From Nemertoderma westbladi (taxonomy: Eukaryota; Animalia; Xenacoelomorpha), in contig JAUCBJ010007341.1 in the NCBI GenBank assembly GCA_032718475.1, positions 1-48,441 of the forward strand: a stretch of 48,441 nucleotides of DNA, in the 5' to 3' direction. Below the pieces are notes generated by a model. That model was not told the DNA's origin, searched no databases, and saw only the letters and a program-made list of their open reading frames with translations. A program made the position numbers and the translations under genes. This document shows positions 13,481 through 45,250 of this stretch, piece after piece; position 1 is the stretch's first letter; each line of letters begins with the position of its first letter.

Positions 13481-15629
13481 CTATTTGCCTTTTTTCAGCT
13501 GTGGTAGCTTGAATAAATTTATAACAAGATGATAAAAACCGACATTTTTTCTCACAAAGTGGACACTTGTATTCAACTTTAGCAGTACCTCTATCAGTAT
13601 CCACTTTTGACTTGTCCCAGTTCTTAGAGTATGAACCAGATCCCTTAAATCCTTTTGGCTTAGTCCCACTATCAGACCCTACTGCTAATGTTTGAGAAGA
13701 AAACTTTCTATCCTTTTCTTTCAAAGGTTTTTTATCATCTTTATTATTATTATGAGTGTCTTTCTTATTGCATTCATCTCTCGTAACATCTTTCCGTGCT
13801 ACCAGAGTTTGCAACCAAGAAATAAATTCCTCATATGTGGGCATTGCACCATCTATATGCTTGTCATCAACTTCCTTTTCCCATTCTTCCCGAATTTTTT
13901 CAGGGAATAATGTTTCCATGGAAGATAGCAGAAAGTTGTCAACAGTTAAATGGTATTTAGATAGATCCAACATGACATTTTGTATTGAATCACATAACTT
14001 TCGCAATGCAGAAATATTATCTTCATCAGTAACTTTTGAAAAGTTCTGAAGTTTTTTGATTAAATGTTTTACAACAATTCTTTCCTTGCCATAAAACCTT
14101 TTAACACTTTCAAGAGCCAGTTTATAATTGTTCGCAGATATTTCCATATCAATAATACAGGTAGCAGCTTTTCCTACTAATGCCTTCTTTAAGTATGTCA
14201 TTTTGTAGAAATTACTTACCTTGTCATTATTGCCTACTATAGCCTCGAATTTTGAAAACCAGCATGGAAATTCTGAATAGGAACCATCGAATTTTGGTAT
14301 GTCTACACCACTAGGTAGACCACCTCGCATTCGTTCCTCTTTATCGGCATCACGCTTCACTTGGGTAAATGTTTTATAGCGACCTATTGCTTGACGAAGA
14401 CTATTTATGTCCTCCAGCAGTTCTGAATGACGTTGATCAATTTTTGTTATTGCAGATTTACACATTTTATGTGTAATAAATCCTTCACACTGTTCGAGAC
14501 GTTTTTCTATAGAACGTAGATCGAAATCTAGTGCATTTGGATCCTTTTCATCTTCAGAGAGTTCATTTACTCTCCTAACAGCTAACCAACAGGGTTTAGC
14601 TAGACGAATATATTCATCAATTTGATTTGATTCCTCAATATCTTGTTTCCTCTGAAACATCACTGAGTTTATTCTGTGCTTCAATTGTCTAAACCGGTGT
14701 TTAAACTGCTGAAAATCTTCAAATAAATCATTTTTAAGTTCCTCATTTTCCAATGAAAACAGACGCTTGTTTACAAATTTATCAGCATCCTGTAGTTCCT
14801 CAGTAGCATCATCAATACGACGCTGCCAAACATGCACATCCATTTCATAAGGATCAATATCAAAATCCATTTCTGCATATAATTCTTGAAGATGGGACAT
14901 TATTGACCTAAATTTATTCTCAATTGATTCAGCTGAATTGGATACAGAGGATAAACCACCAGAATCATTTAAAGGAGATCCCCCTTGCCCATTAATTGGA
15001 GAGGATGTACGTTGGGGTTGGGGTTTTCTGTTAATTGTTTGAAACAACAACAGTAAATCTCTGCGATCCTGTTCCCTCCAATCTCGTTCTCGACGTTCTC
15101 TTTGTTCATCCAGCTGCATTTGCATATTGAAGAATTGGGTCATCATAGCTGATTCCAGCGGCCCGGTACCGGTAGCAGGTCCGGTACCGGTAGCAGGTCC
15201 GGTACCGGTAGCAGGTCCGGTACCGGTAGCAGGTCCGGTACCGGTGGCAGGTCCGGTACCGGTGGCAATCGCACTGAATTCAGTTGTAGGCCTACTTGTT
15301 GCAATAGATGGTGGATGCGCTAAGGGATTAATAATATTATATGGACTACGTTGGATTGGTGAGAAAACCTGGCTCAAATTGTAACCAGGTCGCTCAGTGG
15401 ATTGCGAATCTGCAAATCCAAAATTAATGTTGTCAATATCGTCATTACTTTGGTCTGAGGCGAGGAAGACTCTCAAGCGATTCCGTTTTTCTCCAGTAGT
15501 TCCGGAACACAAGAGACCTCTCTCTTCCAAACAACGATCCAACTCCAATGGCGTCAGATTGCCAATGTCTTCCAGAGCGGGTAAATCAGCCCGTCTGTCT
15601 GACTTCAGATAATATGGTGACTGCGCCAT
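13422..15629 (-). CDS. BEL/Pao Gag (SAP-like N-terminus, GPATGT repeats, DUF1759-like region, Zn knuckles)
   Basis: IPKFDG..F..W...F, K..YLK..L.GKA, NY..AL..L; CxxC knuckles at the end; frameshifted relative to pol. Confidence 0.9.
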   Translation of the reverse strand: MAQSPYYLKSDRRADLPALEDIGNLTPLELDRCLEERGLLCSGTTGEKRNRLRVFLASDQSNDDIDNINFGFADSQSTERPGYNLSQVFSPIQRSPYNIINPLAHPPSIATSRPTTEFSAIATGTGPATGTGPATGTGPATGTGPATGTGPATGTGPLESAMMTQFFNMQMQLDEQRERRERDWREQDRRDLLLLFQTINRKPQPQRTSSPINGQGGSPLNDSGGLSSVSNSAESIENKFRSIMSHLQELYAEMDFDIDPYEMDVHVWQRRIDDATEELQDADKFVNKRLFSLENEELKNDLFEDFQQFKHRFRQLKHRINSVMFQRKQDIEESNQIDEYIRLAKPCWLAVRRVNELSEDEKDPNALDFDLRSIEKRLEQCEGFITHKMCKSAITKIDQRHSELLEDINSLRQAIGRYKTFTQVKRDADKEERMRGGLPSGVDIPKFDGSYSEFPCWFSKFEAIVGNNDKVSNFYKMTYLKKALVGKAATCIIDMEISANNYKLALESVKRFYGKERIVVKHLIKKLQNFSKVTDEDNISALRKLCDSIQNVMLDLSKYHLTVDNFLLSSMETLFPEKIREEWEKEVDDKHIDGAMPTYEEFISWLQTLVARKDVTRDECNKKDTHNNNKDDKKPLKEKDRKFSSQTLAVGSDSGTKPKGFKGSGSYSKNWDKSKVDTDRGTAKVEYKCPLCEKKCRFLSSCYKFIQATTAEKRQIVADKGACFLCTEPYQEGLS

Positions 15630-15833
15630 ATTATTACCAGTTTAGTACCGGTACCGTACCGTTAAGAAGTAGGCCTAACGGAAACGGCCCACAATAAAAA
15701 AATAAACTGCAGGTCCAGATACTTCAATTAAAAAGAAACCGGTATCCGTATCATTAGGAAGTAGGCTTGACGGAAGCGGATTGCAGCAAAATAAACTGAC
15801 TAGTTAATATCAATAACATTAGTTACTTGTGAA

Positions 15834-16294
15834 TGTATCGAGTTTGATAAAACTCATTTTATTAATGAAAGTAAAATCCAAGAAAAGTCATACTTGTCAA
15901 CCATTCAGTCTATAATCAGTTATATTTAATTGTTACATCTGTACATTCAGACATTTGACCATGAATCTACCGTTTAATGATGCGATGCTGATGCTAATGT
16001 TCACAAGTATTGACACATTTACATATTAACTATAAACCGGTAACTATTGCAGTTTGCAAAAATATATAGGCCTGTAGGAATTATTTCCCGCTAGCGGTAA
16101 CATTATATTGCTGCACAGTACAGCAGTTTGTAGGCTACGGTAGTGCAGTAAGTAGGCCTAAAACCAATAACAGTTAATAACCCTACAACATCAGATACAA
16201 GATCATTATACTGCATAGCTAATAATAATAATCGGGTTTTTTAATAGTCCGCCCAGATGAAGTTTTAATCGGTCCACTATCAGACTCTGCTACA
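15834..16294 (-). repeat. BEL/Pao 5' LTR
   Basis: Direct repeat of 8608-9068. Confidence 0.95.
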
Positions 16295-16360
16295 AGTATA
16301 GTGCATGGCTCTCCCCCGTGAAGTCTGCATGTCTCTTTCATATATTATATATATCAGTCA

Positions 16361-16387
16361 TGGCGCAGTTATGATTTTCGAACCTAC
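16361..16387 (+). promoter_or_regulatory. Gypsy primer-binding site, tRNA-Ser-like
   Basis: TGGCGCAGT..TTCGAACCTAC directly after the LTR; resembles the complement of an invertebrate tRNA-Ser 3' end as I recall it. Confidence 0.7.
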
Positions 16388-16551
16388 AACTGTATTGCTG
16401 TATTGCTGTACCAGCTTACTGCTACCACCTACCACGCTACCAGTATACTCTGCTAGACCGCCAGGCCCTCGGGCCCAGGCCAGCCATACCCGCACATTAG
16501 GTTCTGTCTGCCCGTCTGCTGTTAATAAAGTAATAGGCCTACATTAATACT

Positions 16552-19500
16552 ATGGCGCACAACTCAACCGACCCCCGCTCCTTCGTACTCCGCAGCGCAG
16601 CCCCTCCGTTCGACATCGACTGCGAACGTTCGACGTGGGACCTGTGGATCGAGGAGTGGGAAGCGTTCCTGGTGACGTCGGGCCTCGAGAACCTGCGGAC
16701 CATCGACCCCACGGACCCTCCGGACCCGGCCGTCTCGGCCGACCTCCTCCGGGCCACCAACAGACAGCGTCGAGCCGCCCTCACATCCGCGTTCTCCCGC
16801 AGTACGAACGCCGTGGTAAGGGGACTTGGGCTCTCCACTGTCGACAACTCGGATGCGTCCCTCGTCATCGCGACACTCGGTACCCACGTCCACGGAGGGA
16901 CTAACAAACGGGTCCACCGACAGGAACTCGCCCGGCGTTCCCGCCTCCCAGAGGAAACACCGGAGACCTTCCTGGTCCACCTCCGGGACATCGCCACCAA
17001 GTGTGAGTTCGAGGCGCTCCCCACCGCGGCGGCCCACGCCAACGATCGGCTCCTCGATCAATTCATCGCGGGCTTCGGCGACAAAGAGGTGACCGAGCAG
17101 CTCCTCCGCCTGCCTCCAGACAGCTACATCACGGATGCCCTCCGCCTCGCGCAGACTGTCTGGACTGCCCGCAAGGACGCCGCCTCCATGTCGTGGAGCG
17201 GGGCCCCCGCAACCGCTCCCACGGCGCCCTCGGCTGCCAGAGCGACGGCGCAACGCAGCCGCCGGCCCAGGCCCCGCCGCGATCAACCACCCACCCGCTG
17301 CCCGCAGTGCGGGTTCCCCCCACACAACGCGGGAGCCCGTTGCCCCAGCGCCGATGCCCGCTGTCGCCACTGCAACACAGTCGGGCACTACAATCGGATG
17401 TGCCCCCGCCGCCCCCAGACCAACGCAGCCGACGGGCCCGCCACCGATTACGACGACGATCGGTCGACCAACGCCGCCGAGATCTGGTCGATCCTCGCCG
17501 GTCCCGAACTTTACGACGCCCCCACCGTCTCCTCCATTGAACAGTTGGAGTCCCTCGAGACGGTGACACTGGGATTCCAGGTCACTAAGAACCCCAGTTT
17601 CGGAATCACCGAACTCCAGTTCCTCCCAGATTCCGGTGCTAACATTACGGCGATTCCCTTCCGGATCTACTCAGCCTTCGGGGGGAAAGTCGAGATCCTC
17701 CGGAACTCCAACCCGCCGCCCCAACCACCTAAACTCGCCAACGGTAGTCGAGCGGGTTGGGTTTTTAAGGGAGTATTCGGCGCCACCATCCAGTGCCATG
17801 CATTGCACACTGCCTGCACCACGGATGTCTGGGTCCTGGACGGCCTCCACCAACCACTGCTGTCCAGGATGCAGGAAGACCTGCTTCACCCTCGGGATCC
17901 TGTGGAGCCCCATCCTCCGGGGTGGGCGGGGGCCACCCGACGCCCTCACTAGGCAATGTGCGAACCAGCTACTGGCCGCGCCACTGCCCACGCCACCGAC
18001 CACGCCACCAGCACAACCACCGCCAACCCCACCAACACCGACACCATCGCCGACACTGCCACCCAACGCGACCCAGACCTGGGAAACCCTGGTTACCCGG
18101 TACCCCCGCCCCCTCTCTGGGAACTGTAGGGTTATGGCCGGGGGGGATATAACCATAAAACTGCTCCCGGACGCCAAACCATCGTTCCGGTACTCCAACC
18201 GCCCCATACCGGCCAACCTGGAGGAGGCATTCGACAGGGAGCTCAGCGGCCAGGTTGCCATGGGGATCCTCGAGCCCGCGGACGATGCCAACAGTCCCAG
18301 CGCGTGGCTCAGCCCCATGGTCGTTACTAGGAAGAAGAGCGACCCCAACTCCGTCCGGATTACTGTCGACCTCCGGGAGTTGAACCGCCACACCGTCCGA
18401 CCCGCCTACTTTTCCCCGGACCCGTTCCAGGTCGTCTCCCGCGTCCCCACATCGGCCCGCTACTTCTCCGTCCTCGATGGACTCAAGGGGTTCCACCAGG
18501 TCGGCCTCGATCGGGACAGCCGGGAGCTCACCACGTTCGCCACTCCGCGGGGACGGTTCCGGTACCGCCGAATGCCCATGGGGTGGCACGGCAGTTCGGA
18601 CGTCTTCAACGCCCGGATGGCCAAGGCCCTCCAGGGCGTCCCCAACATCGGCCGGATCGTCGAGGATATCCTCATCTATACCGACACCATAGAGGAGCAT
18701 CCGGAGGCAGTGGCGAGAGTTCTCGCCGCCTGCGACACCGCCGACATCTCCATCAACCCGAGGAAGGTTCAGTTCTGCCTTCCGGAGGTCAAGTTCGGCG
18801 GCTACATCGTCTCCCACGGCCGATTCCGGATCGACCCGGAACTCACGGACGGCCTACGGAACTTCCCGACCCCAACCTGCCGGAAGGAACTCCGATCGTT
18901 CCTCGGCCTCGCCCAGCAGCTGGGAAACTCCACAGCCGAGATAACCCAACTAATCGAACCCCTCCGGAGCCTGAACTCTAACTATAACAGCTGGTTGTGG
19001 CTGCCCCAACACAACCAGGCGTTCGAGGCGACTCGGTCCGCCCTGTCCAGCCCCCACTACCTGTCTGGGTTCCACCCCGACCGACGGACGGAACTCCTCA
19101 CCGACGCCTCCCGGCTCCACGGACTCGGTTTCCTTCTCCGACAGCGCGACCCCGACTCCAACCGTTGGCTCACCGTCCAGTGCGGCTCCCGTACCCTCGC
19201 CAAACACGAGGCCAACTGGTCCGGTATGGCCGAACTGGAGGCCCTCGGCGCTGCGTGGGCGGCCCACAAGTGCCGCTATTTCCTCGACGGACTGCGGCAC
19301 TTCGAACTGGTGACCGACAGCAGTCCGTTGATTCCTGTACTGAACGATCGCAGCCTCGACCAGGTCACCAACGACCGCCTGCTGAAACTGAAGACCGCCT
19401 TGGCGCGGTTTAATTTCACCGCTCGGCACCAACGCGGCACCAAGCACCTCGTGGCTGACGCGTTCTCCCGCGCCCCCCGCCACGCACCGGAGCCCTCCGA

Positions 19501-20985
19501 CCTACTACTCACCCCGGAGGACGACGCCGACCGGGAGTTCATCGTCAACGCGGCTGCGGGAGAAATACAACCCGTCGAATCCCGGGACGCCCGTCTCGAA
19601 CAGGTCCGCCAGGTCGGCCAGCTAGACCCCGTCTACCGCGCCCTGCTCACCACCATCGACGAGGGCTGGCCAACCTCCAAACACCAGATTACCGACGACC
19701 AACTCAGACCTTACTTCGCTCACCGCGCTGACCTGATGGCCCACAATGGCCTCATCCTCCGCGGGCCCCAACTATACATCCCCGTGGAACTGCGACACGA
19801 GACCCTGCTGCAACTCCACGCAGTCCACCAGGGCCTTAACAAGACGCGAGAACGCGCTAACAGGTCTGTCTGGTGGCCCTCCATCGCCCACGACATTACA
19901 CAGGAGGTGGGGCGGTGCCAACCGTGTCAGGCAGTCCTCCCCTCCCACGCACCCGAGCCCCTCCAGCGCAACCCGGAAGCGACCCGTCCGTTCCAACGGA
20001 CCCACATCGACCTCTTCCAGGTCGACGCCAAAAACTACATGGCCGCCACCGACGAGTTCACTGGGTGGCCGACATTATATCGGCTAAACTCCGACACCAC
20101 CTCGGTCGCCATTATCGACTGCCTCCGTAAGCTGTTCCTCGCCACCGCGGTGCCTACGGTGCTCCACCCAGATGGAGGCCCCAACTTGTGTCAGACGCCA
20201 TCAAGAACTTCCTCCATCGATGGGGCGTCACCCTCGAGCCTTCCAGCCCCCACCTCCCACGCACAAACGGACTGGCGGAGGCCGCGGTGAAAGCCCTTAA
20301 GAAGATCGTCCGGGGAGCCAACCACGACTCAGACGACATCGCCCAGGGGATACTCGCGTTCCGGAATACCCCCCGCTATGGAGGCCGGTCCCCCGCGGAA
20401 CTCCTCTACGGCAGGAACGTCCGTGAGGCCCTCCCCGTGCATTTCACTGCACTCGACCCCAAATGGCGCCAAACCTTCGCCGAGCTCGACGCCCTTGCCG
20501 ACTCCAACCGCGCGCTACTCCGGGCGAACTATGACGGCCACACCCGACCACTCCGGGCCCTCCCAGTAGGCCACCCTGTCCTTATCCAGGACCCCCGCGA
20601 TAAACGCTGGACGGGCCAGGGGACAGTAGTCGAGACCCTCCAGAACCACGACTACCTGGTACGTCAAGCCAGCGGCCGCGTTGTGCGACGCAACCGGGTT
20701 TTTCTGCGGACCCGGTCGCCCACGCTACCACCCTCGGGCCCACCACTACCGCCCACCCCACCACAACCACTCCAAGAAGTCACACCCAACCCACCACCAC
20801 TGGCGCCACCCATACCCACCTGGGCCGACGTCGCCGCGCCGCCTCAGCCACCGACCACCACCAGCCCCCCACGGGCACCCCAAATACTGACCCAAGCCCC
20901 ACCACCCCCCGCCCCCACCCATACCCGATCCGGTCGAACCATTCGCCCCCCACCACGATACGCCAACAGTGACTACAGTAAATAA
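16552..20985 (+). pseudogene. Gypsy gag-pol (two CCHC knuckles, PR, RT, RNase H, integrase) with two frameshifts
   Basis: CPQCGFPPH..CRHCNTVGHYNRMC; FLPDSGA; LDGLKGFHQ, RMPMG, IVEDILI; TDAS; HQG..C..C and D-D-E; frameshifts at about 17869 and 20187. Confidence 0.92.
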
Positions 20986-21239
20986 CCCTCATAGCCTGTT
21001 CATTTTAACTTTTAGCGGTATATCGTTATTTACCAGTATGTTTATTGCTAATCACCCACCCCCTCCTAAGAAGGGGATATGTGTAGTATAGTGCATGGCT
21101 CTCCCCCGTGAAGTCTGCATGTCTCTTTCATATATTATATATATCAGTCAATTATATATATCAGTCAGCTTCTGTCTATATTAAATACCAAAACACCTCG
21201 ATATGATAGAAAATCGTCGTTTTCATCGACTCAGCAAAA

Positions 21240-21424
21240 GTCATTGATTACACGTCTGTACACGTCATTGATTACACGTCTGTACACGTAATTGATTACA
21301 CGTCTGTACACGGTATTGATTACACGTCTGTACACGGTATTGATTACACGTCTGTACACGTCATTGATTACACGTCTGTACACGTCATTGATTACACGTC
21401 TGTACACGGTATTGATTACACGTG
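21240..21424. repeat. 24-bp minisatellite, about 8 copies
   Basis: Unit GTCATTGATTACACGTCTGTACAC. Confidence 0.95.
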
Positions 21425-21729
21425 TAATCAATACCTTTACAGTAGAATGTACACCTTTACAGTTGAATGGATTTCAGGAAAAGACAATGGATTCGCCGAT
21501 CGATGGTCTTTCGAGAATCCCAGTGTATTCCCCATCCGGTGAAGATACTACTACTGTCTGATGAAATTGAATTACATGTTTGATCTATGTTCTGGTTTAA
21601 CGTAGTAGCCAGATTGACGCCGCCAATGAGCTGTTTTACGTAATGTGCCTGTGTAATTTTATTCCTGTACATATTTTTATACCTTTATATATTTTAATTC
21701 CTTGATTGACTTTTTATTCTTACTAACAG

Positions 21730-21881
21730 TGACCTGTGGTATATTCCTCTTACCTACACATGGGAAGACAATCAGCGAATAAACCAACAAACAGTTATTC
21801 TCAGTGATGAAACATTAACAATGTCTTTTAATCAAAGTATCCACGTGTCTAAATATTATCTGTTCAACGTGGGACGGCTCG
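21730..21881 (+). CDS. M1 aminopeptidase exon (LWYIPLTY), following a 13.9-kb TE-filled intron
   Basis: aacag|t..ctcg|gtaagt; phase continuity with 7804; WxIPL motif. Confidence 0.9.
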
Positions 21882-22528
21882 GTAAGTTGATTCTTACTTT
21901 TTACTAACTTGTATTTCTGGGTTTTTAGAGTGCAATTTACCGAAGCTGGAACAATCTTACTTGGTTGCTTTGACAACAGCCACAGTGGCTGTTAGGCCTC
22001 AAACTCCTCAAAACACCTATATTTATAGCTCATCTACGCTACTATCACGTCAATATATATTAATTCCGCAATGCCAATATTAATTATTCAGTATATTTAT
22101 TCATATACTATTTATAATTATAAATTAATTGATTACAACTGCGACAGTCTTATGTAATTTTACTTGATACGTTGCTCAAACTGTAACAATAATTTTATCA
22201 TTAATTTTTACTAGTAATCAACTACTGTATAATACATATTATATTGTTCTAATTGCCGCATTTCGAATTTTTTTATTACATTACTATATTAGTTATCAGA
22301 GTGGAAGGGTTTAATGTGGAAGATCACCCATATGGTAGTGAACGGGCATTCCTTGGCCTAACGCGCAGGTCGAAATTAAAATCCCAATTGAATTATTATA
22401 AAAGGTACTGAAAGTATTAACTATTAATTAAATTTAGTTCCATTAAATTTAAACAATGTTCGAAATTGTATACAAATGTTAAACTAATAAATTATGTTTC
22501 AGTAACCAGTTTCGTAATGCTTATTTAG

Positions 22529-28564: not shown

Positions 28565-29050
28565 CTACTTATTACTGAATATATGAGAGTCAAGACCCGG
28601 TCGTGGTTTAGATGGCGGGGGTAACCGACGGACCATGTGTCTAGCGTAGTCACTGTTTACCACTCCGGCCTCACGCAGCGCCATCTCTAGTCGCAATCGT
28701 GGGTCTTCCATTAACTTATCATTACTGTAACCTGGTACGTGTCCATATTGTGTTTGTTCAAGGGCCTCTTCGACAATATGCCCTTTGCTTGCTTTAGTGT
28801 GACCAATAGCCCGAAGTGGGTCCTTTTCTACCTCAATCTCATTGGCTACTTGCATTCTCAATTTATCTAATCGTTTCTCTCTGTGCAATTCTGCAGTTTC
28901 CAATAGCCGTTGTTTCTGATTGGCCGCTTCCATCCTGGCTCTCAGTTCAGCCCTCCGATAGGCCACCCGTTCCCGATTCCTTTCTGCTGAATGTTTCAAT
29001 TCGATCTCTAAGTTCAGCAACTCGTCTTTTCGTATCTTTTCTTCATGAAA
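28565..29050 (-). CDS. CCDC148: CCDC148-like coiled-coil protein, terminal exon
   Basis: cag|ttt acceptor at 29051; DPRLRLEMALREAG..YAR..PP..PR..S.IF matches my recollection of the CCDC148 C-terminus. Confidence 0.85.
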   Translation of the reverse strand, partial: FHEEKIRKDELLNLEIELKHSAERNRERVAYRRAELRARMEAANQKQRLLETAELHREKRLDKLRMQVANEIEVEKDPLRAIGHTKASKGHIVEEALEQTQYGHVPGYSNDKLMEDPRLRLEMALREAGVVNSDYARHMVRRLPPPSKPRPGLDSHIFSNK

Positions 29051-29390
29051 CTGTCAATAAAATAAAATTGTTTAAGGATCCAAACGGATGCTACAAGTAA
29101 GTGATCGTATAACCCAGATTGACGAGAAATCTAATACAACTAATCGTATGAACTATGTTTAATAATCCACGGGAAATACAACCCAGTTAATTTAAGAAAC
29201 AGAGACTATGAAATGAAAGGATAACGCGGACAACCTTAAAGACCTTTAAGTATATTTAGAAAACGGTAAAATGTGGTACTTTTCACACAATCGATATAAA
29301 ATAGTTAAAATATTGTTCACATGGAAATGGGAGTTGCGAAACTATAAATTTGAACTTCCAGATGACGTTTGTTAAACACTTTTGTGCGAC

Positions 29391-29513
29391 AAAAATATTA
29401 TACTAATTATTATAATTAGAGTGATATTAAATATGATATCATTGATATATAATATATATCAATGATATCATATTTAATATCACTCTAATTATAATAATTA
29501 GTATAATATTTTT
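29391..29513. repeat. AT-rich palindrome, 61-bp arms, 1-nt spacer
   Basis: AAAAATATTATACTAATT..GATATATA-A-TATATATC..AATTAGTATAATATTTTT. Confidence 0.92.
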
Positions 29514-29679
29514 ATATTAGTATAATATTACTTACATTATATTAATTAGTTATTAGTTATGATATAATTAATAGAGGGATGTTCTCATATTGTACATTAC
29601 ACAACAGTAACCTCGACAATGCTATCCAATGATTGTCGTTTCGTGAGTGGTTTTTGTGTCGACTGTAACTCATACAAAC

Positions 29680-30405
29680 CTCTTTGAGCTGTTTACTGAT
29701 TTGGAATTCGGATATCTTGACTTTATTTTTGGCCCGTCTGTTTCTTTCTCTCTCGGTTGCTTCCTCGGCCTCTTTAGCCAACAGCGCCCGTTCCAGACCC
29801 AGTAACTCCTCCTCCAGTACCCATTGTCTCGTCTTTATCTCCCGCCATCGCTCCAACCTTCGATGTAACTCATCCGCATCCTCTAACTGCGCTTCCCGAA
29901 GACAGCTTTGTTTTTCCCGCAGCTTAGCAACCGCCACTGACTCCCCGAACAGACACCTCGCCTGCTCCAGCAGTTCCAACCGATCCCGATCCCATTGATT
30001 CTCAAGACTTTTTATTTTTAACCTAAGAAATCTATCCCCCTCGCAGTGGGCGAGTTGTTCCTCGAGGAGTCCTCGGGACCAGTCCGGGAACTGTCGGTGC
30101 AATCTGTCCACCAGCAGACGGTGTCGGTTCACCGTCTCCCCAACCGGGTACTGCTCCAACACCATCCCCACTAACATTCTCGTCTCTGACTCCATTATGG
30201 ATGACAGCTCGCCACGTTCTCTCTCCAGGTCTCTCAATCTCGTCTCGTAACTTTCGTCCACCGCCAGGAGTTCGAGTATCATGTAAATACGCAGCGATGT
30301 GTCCGGACATTCCCACTCAAATAGTTTGCGCGGAAACTTACGCCCCCTGGTGGAACTTGATGGCACTGCGGATGTTTCATCGGTATTCATATCGGAACTA
30401 CTCAT
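29680..30405 (-). CDS. CCDC148: CCDC148-like exon (242 codons)
   Basis: tacag|atg..gag|gtttgt, phase 0-0; ECPD..L, coiled-coil sequence. Confidence 0.85.
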
Positions 30406-30431
30406 CTGTAATTAACCAGAATAGATTCAAA

Positions 30432-33400
30432 CTATTTATTAACGCTGTTACTATTAATTAACGCTGTTACTATTTATTAACGCTGTTACTATTTATTAAC
30501 GCTGTTACTATTTATTAACGCTGTTACTATTTATTAACGCTGTTACTATTTATTAACGCTGTTACTATTTATTAACGCTGTTACTATTTATTAACGCTGT
30601 TACTATTTATTAACGCTGTTACTATTTATTAACGCTGTTACTATTTATTAACGCTGTTACTATTTATTAACGCTATTACTATTTATTAACGCTGTTACTA
30701 TTTATTAACGCTGTTACTATTTATTAACGCTGTTACTATTTATTAACGCTGTTACTATTTATTAACACTGTTACTATTTATTAACGCTGTACTATTTATT
30801 AACACTGTTACTATTTATTAACGCTGTTACTATTTATTAACGCTGTTACTATTTATTAACGCTGTTACTATTTATTAACGCTGTTACTATTTATTAACGC
30901 TGTTACTATTTAATAACGCTGTTACTATTTATTAACACTGTTACTATTTATTAACACTGTTACTATTTATTAACGCTGTTACTATTTATTAACGCTGTTA
31001 CTATTTATTAACGCTGTTACTATTTATTAACGCTGTTACTATTTATTAACACTGTTACTATTTATTAACACTGTTACTATTTATTAACGCTGTTACTATT
31101 TATTAACGCTGTTACTATTTATTAACGCTGTTACTATTTATTAACGCTGTTACTATTTATTAACGCTGTTACTATTTATTAACGCTGTTACTATTTATTA
31201 ACACTGTTACTATTTATTAACGCTGTTACTATTTATTAACGCTGTTACTATTTATTAACGCTGTTACTATTTATTAACGCTGTTACTATTTATTAACGCT
31301 GTTACTATTTATTAACGCTGTTACTATTTATTAACGCTGTTACTATTTATTAACGCTGTTACTATTTATTAACACTGTTACTATTTATTATCGCTGTTAC
31401 TATTTATTAACGCTGTTACTATTTATTAACGCTGTTACTATTTATTAACGCTGTTACTATTTATTAACGCTGTTACTATTTATTAACACTGTTACTATTT
31501 ATTAACGCTGTTACTATTTATTAACGCTGTTACTATTTATTAACGCTGTTACTATTTATTAACGCTGTTACTATTTATTAACGCTGTTACTATTTATTAA
31601 CACTGTTACTATTTATTAACGCTGTTACTATTTATTAACGCTGTTACTATTTATTAACACTGTTACTATTTATTAACGCTGTTACTATTTATTAACGCTG
31701 TTACTATTTATTAACGCTGTTACTATTTATTAACGCTGTTACTATTTATTAACGCTGTTACTATTTATTAACGCTGTTACTATTTATTAACGCTGTTACT
31801 ATTTATTAACGCTGTTACTATTTATTAACACTGTTACTATTTATTAACGCTGTTACTATTTATTAACGCTGTTACTATTTATTAACGCTGTTACTATTTA
31901 TTAACGCTGTTACTATTTATTAACGCTGTTACTATTTATTAACGCTGTTACTATTTATTAACGCTGTTACTATTTATTAACGCTGTTACTATTTATTAAC
32001 ACTGTTACTATTTATTATCGCTGTTACTATTTATTAACGCTGTTACTATTTATTAACGCTGTTACTATTTATTAACGCTGTTACTATTTATTAACGCTGT
32101 TACTATTTATTAACACTGTTACTATTTATTATCGCTGTTACTATTTATTAACGCTGTTACTATTTATTAACGCTGTTACTATTTATTAACGCTGTTACTA
32201 TTTATTAACGCTGTTACTATTTATTAACACTGTTACTATTTATTAACGCTGTTACTATTTATTAACGCTGTTACTATTTATTAACACTGTTACTATTTAT
32301 TAACGCTGTTACTATTTATTAACGCTGTTACTATTTATTAACACTGTTACTATTTATTAACGCTGTTACTATTTATTAACGCTGTTACTATTTATTAACG
32401 CTGTTACTATTTATTAACGCTGTTACTATTTATTAACGCTGTTACTATTTATTAACGCTGTTACTATTTATTAACACTGTTACTATTTATTAACGCTGTT
32501 ACTATTTATTAACGCTGTTACTATTTATTAACACTGTTACTATTTATTAACGCTGTTACTATTTATTAACGCTGTTACTATTTATTAACGTTGTTACTAT
32601 TTATTAACGCTGTTACTATTTATTAACGATGTTACTATTTATTAACACTGTTACTATTTATTAACGCTGTTACTATTTATTAACGCTGTTACTATTTATT
32701 AACGCTGTTACTATTTATTAACGCTGTTACTATTTATTAACGCTGTTACTATTTATTAACACTGTTACTATTTATTAACGCTGTACTATTTATTAACGCT
32801 GTTACTATTTATTAACGCTGTTACTATTTATTAACGCTGTTACTATTTATTAACGCTGTTACTATTTATTAACGCTGTTACTATTTATTAACGCTGTTAC
32901 TATTTATTAACGCTGTTACTATTTATTAACGCTGTTACTATTTATTAACGCTGTTACTATTTATTAACGCTGTTACTATTTATTAACACTGTTACTATTT
33001 ATTAACGCTGTTACTATTTATTAACGCTGTTACTATTTATTAACACTGTTACTATTTATTATCGCTGTTACTATTTATTAACGCTGTTACTATTTATTAA
33101 CGCTGTTACTATTTATTAAGGCTGTTACTATTTATTAACGCTGTTACTATTTATTAACACTGTTACTATTTATTAACGCTGTTACTATTTATTAACGCTG
33201 TTACTATTTATTAACGCTGTTACTATTTATTAACGCTGTTACTATTTATTAACGCTGTTACTATTTATTAACGCTGTTACTATTTATTATCGCTGTTACT
33301 ATTTATTAACGCTGTTACTATTTATTAACGCTGTTACTATTTATTAAGGCTGTTACTATTTATTAACGCTGTTACTATTTATTAACGCTGTTACTATTTA

Positions 33401-34082
33401 TTAACGCTGTTACTATTTATTAACGCTGTTACTATTTATTAACGCTGTTACTATTTATTAACGCTGTTACTATTTATTAACGCTGTTACTATTTATTAAC
33501 GCTGTTACTATTTATTAACGCTGTTACTATTTATTAACACTGTTACTATTTATTAACGCTGTTACTATTTATTAACGCTGTTACTATTTATTAACGCTGT
33601 TACTATTTATTAACGCTGTTACTATTTATTAACGCTGTTACTATTTATTAACGCTGTTACTATTTATTAACGCTGTTACTATTTATTAACGCTGTTACTA
33701 TTTATTAACACTGTTACTATTTATTAACGCTGTTACTATTTATTAACGCTGTTACTATTTATTATCGCTGTTACTATTTATTAACGCTGTTACTATTTAT
33801 TAACGCTGTTACTATTTATTAAGGCTGTTACTATTTATTAACGCTGTTACTATTTATTAACACTGTTACTATTTATTAACACTGTTACTATTTATTATCG
33901 CTGTTACTATTTATTAACGCTGTTACTATTTATTAACGCTGTTACTATTTATTAAGGCTGTTACTATTTATTAACGCTGTTACTATTTATTAACACTGTT
34001 ACTATTTATTAACGCTGTTACTATTTATTAACGCTGTTACTATTTATTAACGCTGTTACTATTTATTAACGCTGTTACTATT
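30432..34082. repeat. 19-bp minisatellite, about 190 copies
   Basis: Unit CTATTTATTAACGCTGTTA with few variants. Confidence 0.98.
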
Positions 34083-34297
34083 AATTACCCTGGATTTAAT
34101 TATGTAACAATAAAGGAGAAATAAAATAACTTTACATATTCGATATGGGAGTCAATAAAACGTGTTATTGTTTATTCCTCCGTCCGTGAGAGGATATTTA
34201 CTTAAAATATATTCTAGAACTCTATAATTTGTTTTATAGTTGAATAGCAGTGGTGAAAATTGGCACAAATCAGCATTATAATAAGAAATGAAAAAAA

Positions 34298-35450: not shown

Positions 35451-35974
35451 CTGAATAATAACAACCTCGATTAATAGTTACTTTATTTATACGGATAAAA
35501 AAGTTACTTAATTGAAGTAAGTCAAATGGGCAAAATTACAATCGTCAGGTCGTGTAATAAAGTATATTGAAATAAAGTAGTACTTTATGTCCCGCTGACC
35601 CTGGTATATTTTGCAGAACCAGTACAGGGCTCGGTTACAGGCTGCAATACTGTAGGCCTATGTGATGAGGGCAGTATTATACAATTCATCCTGTATTAAC
35701 TATATTGAAGGTTAGAAGGCCTATAGTATGTAAATGTATGTATTTATTGACTTAGTAGGCCTCATTATACACCATCACCTGGAAAATTGTGTCAAAATCT
35801 GCCCCCCCCCCCCCCCCCCCCAACTATTTCTACAAATCTTAATGAGATTGCATGAAATTTGAAACAGAGATAGTTTCACCTTCCTTTCACTCACCACTTT
35901 TTCCTTAGTGGGTGAGCCAGAATTTTTATTTATTTCTATTTTCGCTTTCATTCTTTAGCTACAAGCGTATCAAA

Positions 35975-38900
35975 AATGCGCAAATTGGCCCAGAAGACAT
36001 CAAGGGTTACACCTATAACACCAGTTCTAACAGAAATGGGTACTTACTTTTAGACCTAATGGAAGAATGTGTATTGATACCAACAAACAACACATTCGAA
36101 AAGAGTAAGGGGAAGCTATGGACCTTTCAATACCCTAATGGAACCAAAGCACAACTGGATTACATCCTTATAAACAAAAAGTGGAGAAACAGCATGATCA
36201 ACTGCGAGGTATACAGCTCGTTCAACCTAATTGGTTCGGACCACAGAATTGTGACTGCAGAGATAAGACTCAGTTTGAGAGCCAGCAAACCCAGGACAAG
36301 CAAGCAAATCAACTATGACTGGGAGAAACTCAGAACTGACAATGCTGTAAAGTAAAGGATGCTTACACAGTAGAAGGTCAAAACCGCTTTGAAGCACTTC
36401 AGTCAATGGATGAAGACCAATCCACCGATTCAATATACCAGAATATAATAACAGCCCACAAGGAATCAGCTAAGAGGCATATCCCCCAGAAACCCAAACG
36501 AAAACAGTATGTGCCATGGCAAAACTCTGAGGTTACTTGTAAGAGAGAAGATCTTAAGATAGCCTACAAAGTTAAAACCGAACAACCAACAACTGAAAAC
36601 ATTAACAAGGTTGAGAAAGCTAAGGACGATCTTAAATTGGCCTACAACATCAGCCAGGAAAAGTACATACAGGATAAAACTGAAGCAATTACAACTGCTC
36701 ACATACAGCAACAATCAAGACTTACCTGGCAAACTGTAAATGAGGTATCTGGTCGGAAAAGTTGTGCAAAGGGGCGCCTCAAAGCCGATAGTCCTGAAGA
36801 ACGTGTTGGGAAGTGGAAAAATCACTTCAGCAACTTGCTTGGGCAACCAAACATCGAGGTCAGCCCTACAAGGAAAATATATGACAAGACACTACCTATA
36901 GAAACAGGGGACTTCACACCTGCCGAACTCCAAAGAAGCATTAAAAGCATGTCTAATAATAAAGCGAGTGGATTAGATGAAATCCCAGCGGAGGTATGGA
37001 AAACCGGAGTGCTAAACAGACCATTATTGAATGTTTGCAACCGGATGTTAAAAGGGGAAAAGCCACCACCAATTTGGACTAAAGGTCAACTAAAGCCTCT
37101 CCCCAAGAAAGGAGACCTCGGCATACCAACAAACTATCGTGGGATCTGTCTGCTTGTGGTAGCTGCCAAAATATACAATAAAATGATTCTATATATGATT
37201 AGGCCTCACATAGAGAAACTACTGCGTAAGAGCCAAAACGGATTTCGACCAAGTAGATCAACAATAGCTCAGATACTTGCACTACGGAGACTGATTGAAG
37301 GAATTAAGTCAAAGAATCTCCCCGCAGTCATGACTTTTGTGGACTTCAAGAAGGCATTCGACTCCATCCATAGAGGTAAAATGCTTGAAATCCTAAGAGC
37401 TTATGGAATACCAGAAGTAATTGTTGCTGGCATTGGATTGCTATATTGTGACACAGAAGCGCAGGTACTCTCACCAGATGGTGAAACTGAGTTTTTCTCA
37501 ATCCTGGCTGGCGTACTGCAAGGTGACACATTAGCACCATTACTATTTGTAATTGTACTGGATTACGCAATGAGGACGGCCACAAAGGGTGAAGATCTGG
37601 GATTCACACTTCAAGAACGCAGAAGTAGTAGATATCCGGCAACTACAGTCACAGACACCGACTTTGCGGATGACATCGCCCTGCTCTCTAATACGCTAGC
37701 AGATGCACAGCTTCTACTAAATAAAGTGGAGAGGGCTGCTAAGGAGGTTGGATTGCATATAAATGCTACCAAGACCGAATTCATGACCTTTAATGTTGAT
37801 GGAAACTTGACAACCATTGATAATAATCAACTAAGGAAGGTCGATGACTTCCAGTACCTTGGATCATGGATAGAGAGTAGCAAAAAGGAAATAGAAGTTA
37901 GGAAAGCAACTACTACTAGGATCGGCATGCTGCATTGCAGCTGCATTTTTAAGAATGCTGTGCCGGCTTGTCAACAAAATTGCACCGCCACAACTCCCTA
38001 TCACCCATGACATTTGCTAGATCATCCGCATCTTTAAGGCCAGTGTCCTTTAAGATGCGTCTCAAGAAAGTCATGGGCTGTCCACCATGCTTATTCACTC
38101 CATGAGGCTGCCAAGGTACAAGATTATGCACTGGCTGGTCCTCACGGCGAAAGCAATGTCCTGCAAAGCAGAGGCGATTTTGTTCTAGTGTCAAGCTTGG
38201 GGGAACCAATGAGACACCTCCAATGTTATATAGTGTCTGGTTGGAGATGTGTGCATTGTACTTGACACAATGAACCCGGCGTAGCATTCTTGTGAATGTG
38301 CCATCCAGAGATTTGGTGTCCTCAGCAGTTAGAGCCCAGCATGGACTCCCATAGAGGAGTACTGGAACTACTGCTGCTCTAAATAATCGGACCTTAAGTT
38401 TCCGATTAATTCTCGGTGACTTCCAAATCCTGGAAAGCCTATTCAAGGCTGCCCGTGCCTTTCCCTTACGTATTCGAAGGTCCTCACCTGACTTCCGGAT
38501 CCATGATCCCAGGTAACAGAAGTCGTCCACATGCTCAAGCATACCATCCTTTGAGCTTATGCTCATCCGATCAGAGACTTGCTGAGGACTTTCAAAGTTA
38601 ACTGTCAGAATTTTGGTCTTTCTGGAGTTAATAAAAAGACCAACACTAGAAGCAGCATGTTCTAATGAGCTGAGGAGCCGTTGGGCTCCCTCTAATGATT
38701 CTGAGAGTACTCCTAAGTCATCAGCAAAGTCTAGATCAGTTAGGTACTTGGCAGGATTTCCTCGATTTCTGGAGCCAGTAGGTGGAGTTATCATCACCCC
38801 ATCATCATTATAATGATCTAAGGACATGCGTAGAACATAGTCAACCACAATAATGAACAAGAATGGTGCAAGTGTGTCTCCTTGGAGGACGCCCCATAAT

Positions 38901-40143
38901 ACTTCAAATGGTTCTGTGTCACCGTCAACATTAGACACAAATGTTGTCGAACCATCATATACTGATCTGATTGCTGCAATAATTTCATCAGGAATCCCAT
39001 ATAATGAACGTATGCTGAACATACGTGAGCGAGAGACTGAATCAAAGGCCTTGAAGAAGTCAACAAAGATAACAGCCAGATGCCTGTCTTTCTTTTTTGA
39101 TAACTCTTCAATTATCCTTCTAAGTGCCAAAACGGGCTCCATGGTCCCACGACCTTTACGGAACCCATTCTGATTTCCACGGAGCAGTCTCTCAATGGGA
39201 TCCCTGATGCGATTTAATAGAATCCTATTGTATAGCTTTGCAGCAATCGAGATCAATGAGATTCCCCGAAAAGAACCATAGAGTGTTAGGTTGCCCTTCT
39301 TGGGAACTGGCACCAACTTATTTGTTTTCATTTCTTGTGGGACTCTTGTTGTTCGGTACATGTCTACTATGATGGGATAGATGAGCTTTAAACACTCAGG
39401 TATTTTAAAGACCTCAGGGGGAACACCATCTACTCCACTGGCACGATTGGTCTTAATGCTCTTTGCAGCAGCCTTCACTTCTGCAAAGGAGATATCGCCA
39501 ATGGGAATATCTGGGAGTACAGACTCAGAAACTTTTACTTCTATAAAGTTATCAGGCAATACCCTGTCATTATTGAGGAGCTTTTCAAAGTGGGCTTTCC
39601 AACCATTGAGGCGATCGGCTGGTGGAAAGCAAAGGGTTGGGTAGCTCTATCAAAAATGGATACCATCTGGAAATCAGATCTCTCCAGGCACCTGAAGACT
39701 AAGTTCTTTCGAGCCACAGTGGAAAGTGTATTTTTATACGGGGGTGAGACCTGGACACTGACCAAATCACTTGAACAACGAATTGATGGTTGCTACACAA
39801 GACTACTAAGGCCAGCCCTAAACATCAGCTGGAGACAACACATGACAAACGCCGAGCTTTATGGTACAATACCACATGTATCAACCACCCTCCGTGAACG
39901 CAGATTAAGATGCAGTGGGCACTGCTGGCGAAGTAAAGACGAGGTCATACCAGATCTACTTCTCTGGCAACCAACTCATGGAAAGCGTAGTCGTGGACGA
40001 CCGGCCATAACATATATAGATCAACTTGAAAGGGATACTGAACTTGGGAGAAACGAAATTGCGACAACTATGGAGAATCGGGAAGCCTGGAAGGATCTCA
40101 TTTCCACTGTCCGAGTTCGCTCGACCTAGTAGTAGTAGTAGTA
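35975..40143 (+). mobile_element. 5'-truncated RTE-like LINE (family A), interrupted by a second LINE
   Basis: APE end (QLDYIL, SDH), RT (QNGFR, DFKKAFDS, GVLQGD, FADD, YLGS), C-terminal part resumes at 39633; (TAG)n tail; 5-bp duplication frameshift near 36350. Confidence 0.92.
37910..39623 (-). mobile_element. 5'-truncated RTE-like LINE (family B) nested antisense in LINE A
   Basis: Open RT ORF 37949-39559; (TAG)n tail at 37910; 9-bp TSD GGAAAGCAA (37901-37909 / 39624-39632); removing it restores VRKAKGW in LINE A. Confidence 0.95.
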
Positions 40144-41008: not shown

Positions 41009-41316
41009 ACATGTCTTAACTTTCGTTTATTGTTTTGGTTCCCCCAACACGCCTCTGTAACATGCTCCTTTACTAACCTGCTCCTTTAAATGACAATGGG
41101 ACCTAACGCTCTATGGGACCTAACGCACTTTGGGATCTAAGGCGACCCTACCTCTTTGTTTTGTACAGGTCACATCACAAAGAGCGTTAGGTCCCATTGC
41201 CATTTAAAGGAGCAGGTTAGTAAAGGAGCAGGTTAGTAAAGGAGCAGGTTAGTAAAGGAGCAGGTTACAAAGGCGTGTTGGGGGAACCAAAACAATAAAT
41301 GAAAGTTAAGACATGT
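41009..41316. mobile_element. Fold-back MITE-like inverted repeat with 17-bp subrepeats
   Basis: ACATGTCTTAACTTTC.. / ..GAAAGTTAAGACATGT, arms of about 100 bp; TAAAGGAGCAGGTTAG repeats. Confidence 0.8.
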
Positions 41317-42728
41317 TACAAGATTATGCAGGTCTTTATAATTGGGTCTTTGTATTTTTACTATATTGTTATTGTTATTTGGTACAAAAATTATCTACCA
41401 TCTATTTAGCCGATAGGTGAAAAGTACCTCCCAACTAGTTGGTAGCTATTTTTTTGTTATTGGTCGGAATTGGAATTGGAATTTTTTATTAGACGTCAAA
41501 TCAGCTAAAATTTACGCAATTAAACCGATAACATAATAAAATAGTTAACAGAACAACAAAAGTACGAACAAGCCAATGCAAAGACCTTCAATCAGATATA
41601 TTAATGGTTCAATAGGCATCTGTACTGTACTGTATGTTTATAAATAAATATTTTAATATGTTACTGAACTGAAAATACGATGGGCATAGAATATACGTAG
41701 TTGCGCGGGGTCTCTAAAACATTGAGTAATAATGATTTGTCGTCGAGGATAGCCCCATGAGACTGCGTCTCGTTTCCTTGGGGGTCCTCGCTATGCGATG
41801 AAAATCTTATTGTTGTAATAAGTCTACTGTATGAGTAAAATAAAAATATAATTAATATAAGTACGTAGTTAGTAAGTCTGTTTTTGTCTGATAATTAAAT
41901 TTTTCAAAAATATATTAGTAAGAAAAAGCGGATATTTCAGATAAAAATAAATAATAAATACAGTAGATCTCATATTGGGGAGATGATAAATTAAAGAGGA
42001 TAACAATTCACACAAATACAGTACAAAATATAATACAGTACACCATGACCCGTAATATAGTGGCATGCTGATGACACGGACGCCCCCCCCCCCCCCCCCC
42101 AAATTTTTCTACAAATCTTTATCATATTGCTTGAAATTTGAAACACAACTAGTTCAACTCACCCTCGATGACCCCATGAAGCCTGAATTTTCGATGTCGC
42201 CTTTAAATTTTATTTATAAACGTTTTAAAAAACGTGTCTTTTGCGAAATCGCACCCTCTGTATCATTGCCATTCTTCACTTTAGTCGTAATTTTTTCACA
42301 TCAATAGAAAGCTTGCGTTGAAAGGATTCCAAATATGTAACAATGTCTGAATTTATTTCATTGAGAAACAACTGAGATACAGGCGTTCAAGGATTGCAAG
42401 AACGATTATTCGCTGCAGGCCATTTATTCTATTTAATAAATACACAAAATTCTAGAACGTGTTATTTAGTTTATGAGTTGGTTGGCAACAGCGGTATTCC
42501 TATCCAATATATCAATTGCGTAGCTAATCATATATAAACAAATTGTTCCAGAATTTTGTGTATTTATTAAATAGAATAAATGGCCTGCAGTGAACAATAA
42601 TTCTTGCAATCTTTGAACGCCTATTTCTCAGCTGTTTCTCAATGAAATTCAGATATTGTTACATATTTGGAATCCTTTAAACGCAAGCTTTCTATTGATG
42701 TGAAAAAATTACGACTAAAGTGAAGAAT

Positions 42729-43239
42729 AAAATAGGACATGGGGTCTTATTCCCTCAGATACTACCTAGCATTTAGGGCCACTTGGGCCACTGTTAGTAC
42801 TCAGGCACTAAGGCCCATCAAAAAACAAACTACCAAATCGATTTTAGTGCTACATAACCCAACAACCCAACTACCACAAGAAAAATTACACCAAACCATA
42901 CAGTAACTACAGGTTCCGGTAAGTATTGCACGAAATAGACTATCCCATAAATTACGAAAAATATAGGACATTTTGTCCGCGAAAAGGTAAGTCTAAAGTA
43001 ATAAATTTTATAAAAATAAAAGGGTTTCGGAGATTTAAACACTGAACCCTGGGATTCGTGGTTCTCCTCATCAGCAGTGTGCCACGAACCCCACCCCTAC
43101 CCTAACAAAACTGCACCACTAAATTAAGACAATGACCAATAAAATAGAAATCCTACCGTACCACCAAACTGTCCTATTTTATTGTTTTCATACTGTATTA
43201 ATATCACAATCCCTCTAAAGTTGTGGTTGTCTAACATCA
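42729..43239 (-). mobile_element. 511-bp non-coding, ribozyme-carrying insertion (retrozyme or non-autonomous Penelope-like retroelement candidate)
   Basis: 13-bp TSD TAAAGTGAAGAAT (42716-42728 / 43240-43252) interrupting one arm of a fold-back MITE; contains the hammerhead. Confidence 0.75.
43021..43092 (-). ncRNA. Hammerhead ribozyme with non-circularly permuted (rearranged, pseudoknotted) strand order
   Basis: Minus strand: GGGGUUCGUGG C ACACUG CUGAUGA GGAGA A CCACGAAUCCC AGGGU U CAGUGU UUAAA UCUCC GAAA CCCU; all core nucleotides, stems I (6 bp), II (5 bp), III (5 bp) and an extra 11-bp helix. Confidence 0.85.
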
Positions 43240-43928
43240 TAAAGTGAAGAATGGCAATGATACAGAGGGTTGCGATTTCGCAAAAGACACTTTTTTTAAA
43301 ACGCTTATAAATAAAATTAAAGGCGAAATCGAAAATCCCGGCTTCATGGTAACAACCACGGTGCGTGGAACTAGTTGTGTTTCAAATTTCATGCAATATG
43401 ATCAAGATTCGTAGAAAAATCTGGGCGGGGGGGGGGGGGGGGGGGGGTCCGTGTCATCAGAAAATGACACTATATTACGGGTCATTGTGTACATACATAC
43501 AATAATAATACATACATAATATAATACATACAATACAAAAATAATAATTATTTACACTAGTATCAAACTGTAGGAACCATTAAGCATTTAGAGGGAAATA
43601 AAAATATTGAAATGGCAGTGGATTGTGGATTATTTAAAAAATAAAAATATTTACCGAATAATGTCATATTGTAAAAAACCAATAAAAAATTTAAATTAAA
43701 AAAAAAATACTTAAAAAAAAATATTAGTTTAAAAATTATAAGTTAAAAATATTGAAATGCAGTTTAAATTCCAAGCAATTTAGCTACTAAGTTATATATT
43801 GATATATCGGATGACATGATTTTTTCGAGAAGATACGATTTATTTTATGTTTGAAGGACTCAATATATTCAAAATGGGGCAGTTGGTCAGTTGATATTAG
43901 CCAATAAAAAAACACATAATTTCCTGAC

Positions 43929-44103: not shown

Positions 44104-44437
44104 CTGTAATTTGAATAATAATATAAAATATTGTGTAAATATTACATGTGTTATGTAAATTTTAATAGCTAATCAGATACCGGTAGGTATAATAATTTAA
44201 AAAACGAATAGGCCTAACACATTTAATTTCGTTCATTTAATTACAGAATTGGGGGTAGAGCAGGTAGAGGGTGTGTACATACAGTATATACAGATATGGC
44301 CTACTACAAGGGTAGCCCGTTTATTATTATTAGGGTGGTCGCTCTTCGGTGGGTTTTGCACTGGAAATGTCAGAAAGTAATAACGATATTACGTATTTTA
44401 TTCTACATAGACATGTACTGGCTATACATCCCCATGA

Positions 44438-45040
44438 TGGGATCATGGATCCGGAAGTCAGGTGAGGACATTCGAATACGTAAGGGAAAGGCATGGGCAG
44501 CCTTGAATAGGCTTTCCAGGATTTGGAAGTCACCGAGAATTAATCGGAAACTTAAGGTGCAATTATTTAGAGCAGCAGTAGTTCCAGTACTCCTCTATGG
44601 GAGTCCATGCTGGGCTCTAACTGCTGAGGACACCAAATCTCTGGATGGTACATTCACAAGAATGCTACGCCGGGTTCATTGTGTCAAGTACAATGCACAC
44701 ATCTCCAACCAGACACTATATAACATTGGAGGTGTCTCATTGGTTCCCCCAAGCTTGACACTAGAACAAAATCGCCTCCGCTTTGCAGGACATTGCTTTC
44801 GCCGTGAGGACCAGCCAGTGCATAATCTTGTACTTTGGCAGCTTCATGGAGTGAATAAGCATGGTGGACAGCCCATGACTTTCTTGAGACGCATCTTAAA
44901 GGACACTGGCCTTGAAGATGCGGATGATCTAGCAAATGTCATGGGTGATAGGGAGTTGTGGCGGTGCAATTTTGTCGATAAGCCGGCACAGCATTCTTAA
45001 AAATGCAGCTGCAATGCAGCATGCCGATCCTAGTAGTAGT
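44438..45040 (+). mobile_element. 3' fragment of RTE-like LINE family B
   Basis: Near-identical to the reverse complement of 37910-38511; (TAG)n tail. Confidence 0.93.
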
Positions 45041-45160
45041 AACCGGGTAGTGTACAACTTTAGGAATCGCGTAATTTACATTGAAATTAATATCTCATAT
45101 CTCTCCAAACCACCTAAGCGTTTCGACCTTACCGGGTCTCTTTAGCGTGGTCACTGGAGA

Positions 45161-45250
45161 AGGGAGTTGTGGCGGTGCAATTTTGTTGACAAGCCGGCAC
45201 AGCATTCTTAAAAATGCAGCTGCAATGCAGCATGCCGATCCTAGTAGTAG
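45161..45250 (+). mobile_element. Second, 90-bp 3' fragment of LINE family B
   Basis: Repeats 44950-45039 including the tail. Confidence 0.9.

Follow-up and report, generated by a model that had tools for sequence, protein, structure and literature searches.

The window, the whole 48,441-nt stretch of DNA that was analysed, has the look of animal DNA: its open reading frames (ORFs) encode BEL/Pao, gypsy-type and non-LTR reverse transcriptase and a CCDC148-like product. BEL/Pao elements are typical of animals, and a near-intact one occupies 8993-15641 on the minus strand; a gypsy-type element lies on the plus strand at 16537-20985 and is GC-rich (65%) compared with a genome of approximately 38% GC. 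The CCDC148-like coding stretch (28565-30411, minus strand) has unusually long open frames and no homologue by word search, and homology searches with two host ORFs returned no match. It adjoins a 3.6-kb satellite with a 19-bp unit (30431-34087). Nested and inverted RTE-like retrotransposon fragments form a cluster at 36340-40129 and 44227-45250, within which 37909-38511 and 44438-45040 are 98% complementary over 603 nt. Smaller repeats include a 39-bp tandem array of approximately 43 copies whose minus strand has long open frames (3018-4702) and a small nested inverted-repeat element with 16-bp tandem units (41009-41316).

A long palindromic host repeat spans 42038-43492, with arms approximately 88-90% alike (42038-42476 against 42535-42728 plus 43240-43492) and a further piece at 35802-35879; its summed contig depth reaches up to approximately 320,000 in sequencing run X1. 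The right arm is interrupted by a 511-bp insertion (42729-43239), and the uninterrupted left arm (42038-42476, plus strand) shows the empty site at 42271-42283. Sequence comparison identified a 13-bp target-site duplication either side of the insertion, at 42716-42728 and 43240-43252; the last three bases of the former match the element's 3' end (microhomology). The duplication beside the sense 3' end starts with ATT, three bases that it has in common with the element. The insert comprises a sense arm of a mobile element on the minus strand (42729-43169), 5'-truncated at 43169, and an inverted arm on the plus strand (43170-43239) made up of the element's own 3' end and a tail of approximately 56-59 nt (43181/84-43239), which is present at one end only. 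Sequencing contigs contain opposite-strand joints from 42726 to 43196 and 43210, which identify 43170-43239 as the element's own 3' end in inverted copy and hence the minus strand, which bears the ribozyme described below, as the sense strand. A MITE (DNA transposon) was rejected on the grounds that the inverted repeat is only 11-14 bp, the tail is at one end and other copies have many breakpoints, and L1-type twin priming on the grounds that the inverted arm is the element's outermost 3' end rather than an upstream part. No Penelope-like element (PLE) ORF was found among the 11 ORFs scanned in the window, and the 441-nt sense arm contains no ORF.

The family to which the insertion belongs was followed in contigs from four DNA runs of one organism, drawn from three studies, where X1 and X3 represent one sample and one DNA run may be the source of the window itself. 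The whole insert is covered by contigs of all four runs; X6 and X7, from other organisms, yielded no contigs matching the insert, which is no proof of absence. Summed depth over the ribozyme motif was approximately 14,600-22,400 in X2 and 35,000-50,600 in X3, single-junction contigs had depths of 6-50 and a single 102-nt contig reached 4,354 in X2. Summed contig depth is not a copy number, but the contigs show the family to be high-copy, and its members are inferred to number in the hundreds. Depth rises toward 42750-42800 and is highest near the element's 3' end, and loose contig ends at 43169 indicate that other copies extend upstream, where the contigs reach less than 30 nt. The window copy differs from the family majority at approximately 5 of 511 places. 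Thirteen joints were listed: two show tail continuity, and the remaining 11 rows correspond to nine further junctions of the head-to-head kind. Six have a short tail arm (near 42772, 42794, 42826, 42863, 42972 and 43039-41), and three have two longer arms (42801/43051, 42822/42863 and 42936/42969, the last of which may reflect a local hairpin). The other junctions, the tail continuity and the depth gradient are all present in contigs of two studies. In other copies the tail ends and TA-rich letters follow; the window site is no microsatellite.

Inside the insertion, on the minus strand at 43021-43092, lies a hammerhead ribozyme motif whose nested part folds as two adjacent hairpins with loops of 20 nt each, one closed by an extra helix, P, and the other by stem III, while pairing between the loops forms stems I and II. 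The first hairpin opens with the 5' strand of P (43092-43082), above which C43081 stands opposite A43062, and its loop holds the 5' strand of stem I (43080-43075), core block C, CUGAUGA (43074-43068), and the 5' strand of stem II (43067-43063). The 3' strand of P (43061-43051) directly adjoins stem III with a linker of 0 nt; the 5' strand of stem III together with U17 (43050-43045) includes the GUU triplet (43047-45), and the cut is predicted between 43045 and 43044. There follow the 3' strand of stem I (43044-43039), a 5-nt crossover linker, UUAAA (43038-43034), the 3' strand of stem II (43033-43029), and core block G, GAAA (43028-25), with the 3' strand of stem III (the two together 43028-43021). 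A script check of the pairing gave six Watson-Crick pairs in stem I (43080-75/43044-39), five in stem II (43067-63/43033-29), five in stem III (43050-46/43025-21, U16.1-A15.1 among them) and 11 bp in P (43092-82/43061-51), one of them G-U. The positions of stems, core and triplet, and the 11-bp helix, are thus as given in the original prediction, with a possible twelfth pair in P. The conserved elements CUGAnGA, GAAA, U16.1-A15.1, H17 and G10.1-C11.1 are all present, with the two halves of the core 39 nt apart. The order of the blocks is C, S, G (predicted as A-C-B and recovered by a scan of all six orders), which is not a circular permutation of hammerhead types I-III; this order, along with the three stems (I, II, III) plus a helix that connects I to II, places the motif in type CSG.

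With stems of at least 4/3/4 bp, the six-order scan found this motif as the sole hammerhead in the window. The same loose thresholds gave 77 matches, 13 of them CSG, when 3,952 dinucleotide-shuffled versions of the window were scanned on both strands for all six block orders, so that a chance arrangement of short motifs had to be considered. At 5/4/5 a single match was left and at 6/5/5 there was none in 3,952, even though helix P, an 11-bp fourth helix, was not required. Furthermore, the first hairpin has a z-score of -5.5 and the layout equals that of validated RNAs. The shuffles and the matching layouts refute a chance origin, which we regard as vanishingly improbable, and the hammerhead fold is almost certainly real and conserved. 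Rfam gave no match at the gathering score over the whole window, and none of the eight weak matches at E up to 10 was a hammerhead; standard models therefore miss the motif, as had been anticipated for type I-III patterns.

The order C-S-G was named type CSG by Eckert, Friedrich, Weinberg and Weinberg (2023, PMC10085705), who described two unique, near-identical sequences (five in all) in soil-metagenome DNA from no known organism. Both, CSG-1 and CSG-2, cleaved in vitro at the predicted site, at rates of 0.004 and 0.026 per min, and the GUU cut site originally predicted here is supported by analogy with them. Evidence for biological relevance was graded weaker in that paper, there being two similar sequences, modest covariation and no host. 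As given there, the RNAs derive from soil metagenomes, a single Caballeronia genome and metatranscriptomes, many of the last being spruce-associated, so the marine invertebrate named as a source in the original prediction was a mistaken attribution (PMC10085705). The question of novelty that it raised has a divided answer: the permuted form itself is already known, and what is new is its setting in an animal mobile element, a PLE-type carrier that had been overlooked. In the literature surveyed, which took in few subscription papers, no CSG or other non-circular hammerhead was placed in an animal genome or retroelement; PMC13725137 and PMC10761166, as far as their available text goes, merely cite Eckert et al.

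The window motif shares with the published CSG sequences the block order, the core, the helix joining I and II and a short link from P to stem III, and with CSG-1 in particular a 6-bp stem I, a 5-bp stem II, a 5-nt linker led by UUAA (also common to CSG-2) and two 20-nt loops. A pyrimidine-purine pair tops P in each case, C-A in the window and U-G in CSG-1 and CSG-2. Aligned by eye, 13 of 23 pairs differ between the window and CSG-1 (four in P, four in I, two in II and three in III); all are double changes and none is broken, a pattern of covariation. The window differs in its longer P (11-12 bp against 7-8 bp), its GUU rather than GUC triplet, its P-to-III link of 0 nt and its location in a high-copy mobile element, where the published examples are described without host, carrier or role. 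GUU fits the NUH rule, although it is outranked by the best triplets, GUC and AUC (PMC9217987). The distance between stems II and III is 12 nt, whereas the RNAMotif pattern of PMC10085705 allowed 0-10 nt. Type-SGC (HRIMA-1 and variants) has, by that paper's description, the same two hairpins and four helices, but in the opposite hairpin order and from metatranscriptomes, beside hairpin ribozymes.

A pattern scan of metagenomes produced 96 matches, and two loci, L019 and L087, passed the pairing test, adding three CSG copies: one in L019 and two, 114 nt apart, in L087. Their P helices are 10-11 bp long although the pattern did not demand P; L019 has one mismatch in stem I and one in stem II. 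The pattern required TTAA, so its presence in L019 and L087a is not independent evidence (the linker of L087b is TTCAT), and the published CSG contigs were not returned, so the scan is incomplete. Pairs were tabulated by position because MAFFT misaligned L019 and the outer part of P, and the sequences are too few for a statistical test of covariation. L087 contains approximately 2.3 tandem units of 114 nt at 217-473, each with a CSG hammerhead; the first, partial unit starts near the cut site, and compensatory changes distinguish stem III of one unit from that of another. It looks like a retrozyme carrying a permuted ribozyme. The L019 contig is AT-rich, and at 409-743 (minus strand) its CSG hammerhead lies approximately 60 nt after a 70-codon RGG-rich frame, the 70-aa product of which gave only a weak Atlas lead. 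None of 65 pattern matches in prokaryote genomes was convincing, and the candidate L153 (same stretch as L039) was rejected with a stem II of only 2 bp. In five scans of viral contigs, none of the at least 410 loci listed had a P helix above 5.5.

The structure of the insertion matches that described for PLEs, in which a 5'-truncated copy is inverted, the tail is at one side and the duplication is short (PMC8557442; PMC3846280). Endonuclease-bearing PLEs have, like the window, an inverted terminal repeat, an optional tail and a hammerhead near the terminus (PMC3846280, PMC11167929), although those described have duplications of 8-10 bp (Arkhipova et al. 2013, PMC3846280) compared with 13 bp here, and hammerheads of canonical order (PMC3846280, PMC11167929) rather than CSG. 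Purified PLE protein cuts both strands at AT-rich sites (often ATT) and extends them; copying begins from two points bracketing the tail, and the RNA that is inserted is uncut (Frangieh et al. 2024, PMC11167929). In the same report the PLE hammerhead cut only with the protein present and was dispensable for insertion in vitro (PMC11167929). Very probably, then, the carrier is a PLE.

Naiads are PLEs reported to lack canonical hammerheads, and eight of them were marked 'half core', the second half lying at a distance of 35-50 nt (Craig et al. 2021, PMC8557442). The window likewise has no canonical hammerhead (no Rfam match) and core halves at comparable spacing, and also a 5'-truncated copy with an inverted partner, a one-sided tail and an AT-rich target. 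Its tail of 56-59 nt exceeds the 30-40 bp described for Naiad, and its duplication is clean where those of Naiads are often not discernible (PMC8557442). The available text of that paper describes no permuted ribozyme in Naiads. In its File S5, examined by eye, the CSG motif is complete in 8/8 nematode Naiad consensus sequences (Ppac, Parc, Nbra 1-3, Hcon, Hpol and Asuum); it has the sense orientation and is located towards the 3' end (3' UTR), following the ORF in those where one is visible. Names were taken from the headers, except that Ppac and Asuum were identified by position and by the order in File S1; these sequences and the published CSG sequences were compared by eye only, and matches split by line breaks may be missed. 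Dimensions are similar throughout: P of 9-16 bp, stem I of 5-6, stem II of 4-5, linker of 2-5 nt and stem III of 6-12 bp, with an extra U ahead of stem II in Naiad_Asuum. Naiad_Parc and Naiad_Ppac have exactly the spacing of the window, C-A pair included, and Naiad_Hpol shares both its GUU and its zero-length P-to-III link, the latter also found in Naiad_Hcon. The presence of CSG in nematode Naiads makes Naiad the best guess for the parent of the window copy, by analogy only and at slightly better than even odds.

Taken together, the motif is probably a type-CSG hammerhead near the 3' end of a high-copy, PLE-structured retroelement, likely a Naiad, with slow cleavage predicted after GUU; that the window motif would cleave in vitro is predicted with considerable confidence. 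A point against is that in one study of Xenopus retrozymes, eight of nine predicted elements did not cleave (bioRxiv 10.64898/2026.07.22.740005). Helix P, which at 11-12 bp is strong, would form first as a hairpin with its 20-nt loop, and the short stem-III hairpin would form next, its own 20-nt loop pairing with the first to create stems I and II and rebuild the catalytic core. P and the UUAAA crossover would hold stems I and II together, a task that falls to the loop-loop contact in ordinary hammerheads. Slow cleavage would follow at 43045|43044 (GUU|C), by ordinary hammerhead chemistry. The role of cleavage may be to trim tandem or read-through transcripts toward unit length, and if cutting is slow, or occurs only with the element's protein, uncut RNA would still be copied. 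Indeed, the window copy runs 125 nt upstream of the cut site and summed depth shows no step there, which indicates that cut RNA is not the main template and that uncut or re-ligated RNA is copied. For the insertion itself, both strands of an AT-rich target would be nicked 13 bp apart, each nicked end would prime copying from one of two start points near the RNA 3' end, and the two truncated copies would be joined head to head. Of 12 truncation points, two are no more than 6 nt from the cut site (43039-41 and 43051; p ~0.05); a fossil of the cut was considered and rejected, as stalling at hairpins explains them equally well.

The ribozyme could instead be genuine yet belong to a short, non-autonomous retrozyme- or SINE-like family dependent on enzymes borrowed from PLEs, with RNA that is cut and re-ligated into a circle as an intermediate. 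The ORF-less 441-nt sense arm and the 114-nt tandem units of L087 are compatible with this, copies spanning the cut site could have come equally from a circular or an uncut template, and PLE terminal repeats are the proposed origin of animal retrozymes. Li, Clavereau and Pollet (2026, bioRxiv 10.64898/2026.07.22.740005) describe such animal non-LTR retrozymes as short hammerhead-bearing repeats tied to PLE terminal repeats, a description that L087 resembles; they are, however, defined by tandem type-I hammerheads, whereas the window copy has a single motif of type CSG and no tandem array. No joint that goes back was seen among the 13 listed, longer copies continue upstream in unique sequence, and a long linear template would account for the many truncation points and for the rise in depth toward the 3' end; a retrozyme-like family is accordingly considered quite unlikely. 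Still less probable is that the motif is a relic, young and inherited, with no useful cleavage in vivo and uniform only through recent spread of the family. The overall homogeneity of the family, the dispensability of the PLE hammerhead for insertion in vitro (PMC11167929) and the lack of a fossil step in depth at the cut site would agree with a relic. None of the 13 substitution and 11 indel places at which variants reach at least 2% in the insert (complete tables) falls in the 72-nt motif, but the significance of this gap is doubtful (p = 0.03 with independent sites, 0.16 with clustered ones), and elsewhere the insert has another, of 95 nt. The variant gap is weak evidence of selection on the fold; the strong evidence is covariation across families, in that the core and four helices are kept through compensatory changes in the soil contigs, the two metagenome contigs and eight Naiad families, which points to long selection on the fold and against a relic.

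Within a functional ribozyme, the first hairpin of one repeat or molecule might pair with the second hairpin of another. Cutting would then be confined to tandem transcripts or high RNA concentration and would serve to sense tandem copies. The motif divides cleanly into two hairpins, and the link between P and stem III is very short, at 0 nt in the window, Naiad_Hpol and Naiad_Hcon and 1 nt in Naiad_Parc. On a rise of approximately 2.8 Å per pair for A-form helices, a rough estimate suggests that a Naiad_Parc monomer, with a stem III of 12 bp against a P of 10 bp, must open several pairs, whereas in the window P (11-12 bp) is about the length of stem III, core and stem II combined (~13 layers) and could reach by folding back. 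The short link was flagged by Eckert et al. as a poor fit to the crystal structure (PMC10085705), the L087 motif lies in tandem repeats and PLEs form partial tandems (PMC8557442). Conversely, single-motif transcripts of CSG-1 and CSG-2 cleaved (PMC10085705) and the window copy is single. For this copy a monomer is modestly favoured and a dimer appears unlikely.

The data give type CSG a biological home, comprising a high-copy element of an animal, three copies in metagenomes and eight in Naiads, and compensatory changes in all four helices strengthen the type beyond the two similar sequences of PMC10085705. They also bear on the puzzle of Naiads thriving without hammerheads, as at least the nematode Naiads seem to carry a form hidden from standard searches. 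The role of PLE hammerheads becomes testable in a new clade, and the motifs offer compact natural constructs for the structure of a doubly pseudoknotted hammerhead. A bolder and rather doubtful extension is that non-circular hammerheads, far from being rare oddities of soil and fungal RNA, are the standard ribozyme of a large animal retroelement clade, as kissing hairpins that pair inside a single repeat or between tandem repeats and cut only when transcribed in tandem; if true, the two published soil CSG sequences would be pieces of nematode retroelements.

In the 46 non-nematode Naiads, a word search of File S5 found no CSG form, a point against the Naiad assignment. Seven matches there appear to have another order, with the chain opened beside the core (parts 8-12 and 24); in parts 8, 10-12 and 24 a split core is seen, ordered S, G, C, and the 5' strand of stem II lies upstream. 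Three of the split-core matches have a UUAAU linker like that of the window. Near the Naiad_Skow headers (parts 25-26), two late Naiad consensus sequences carry a 3'-end motif of HDV-like appearance.
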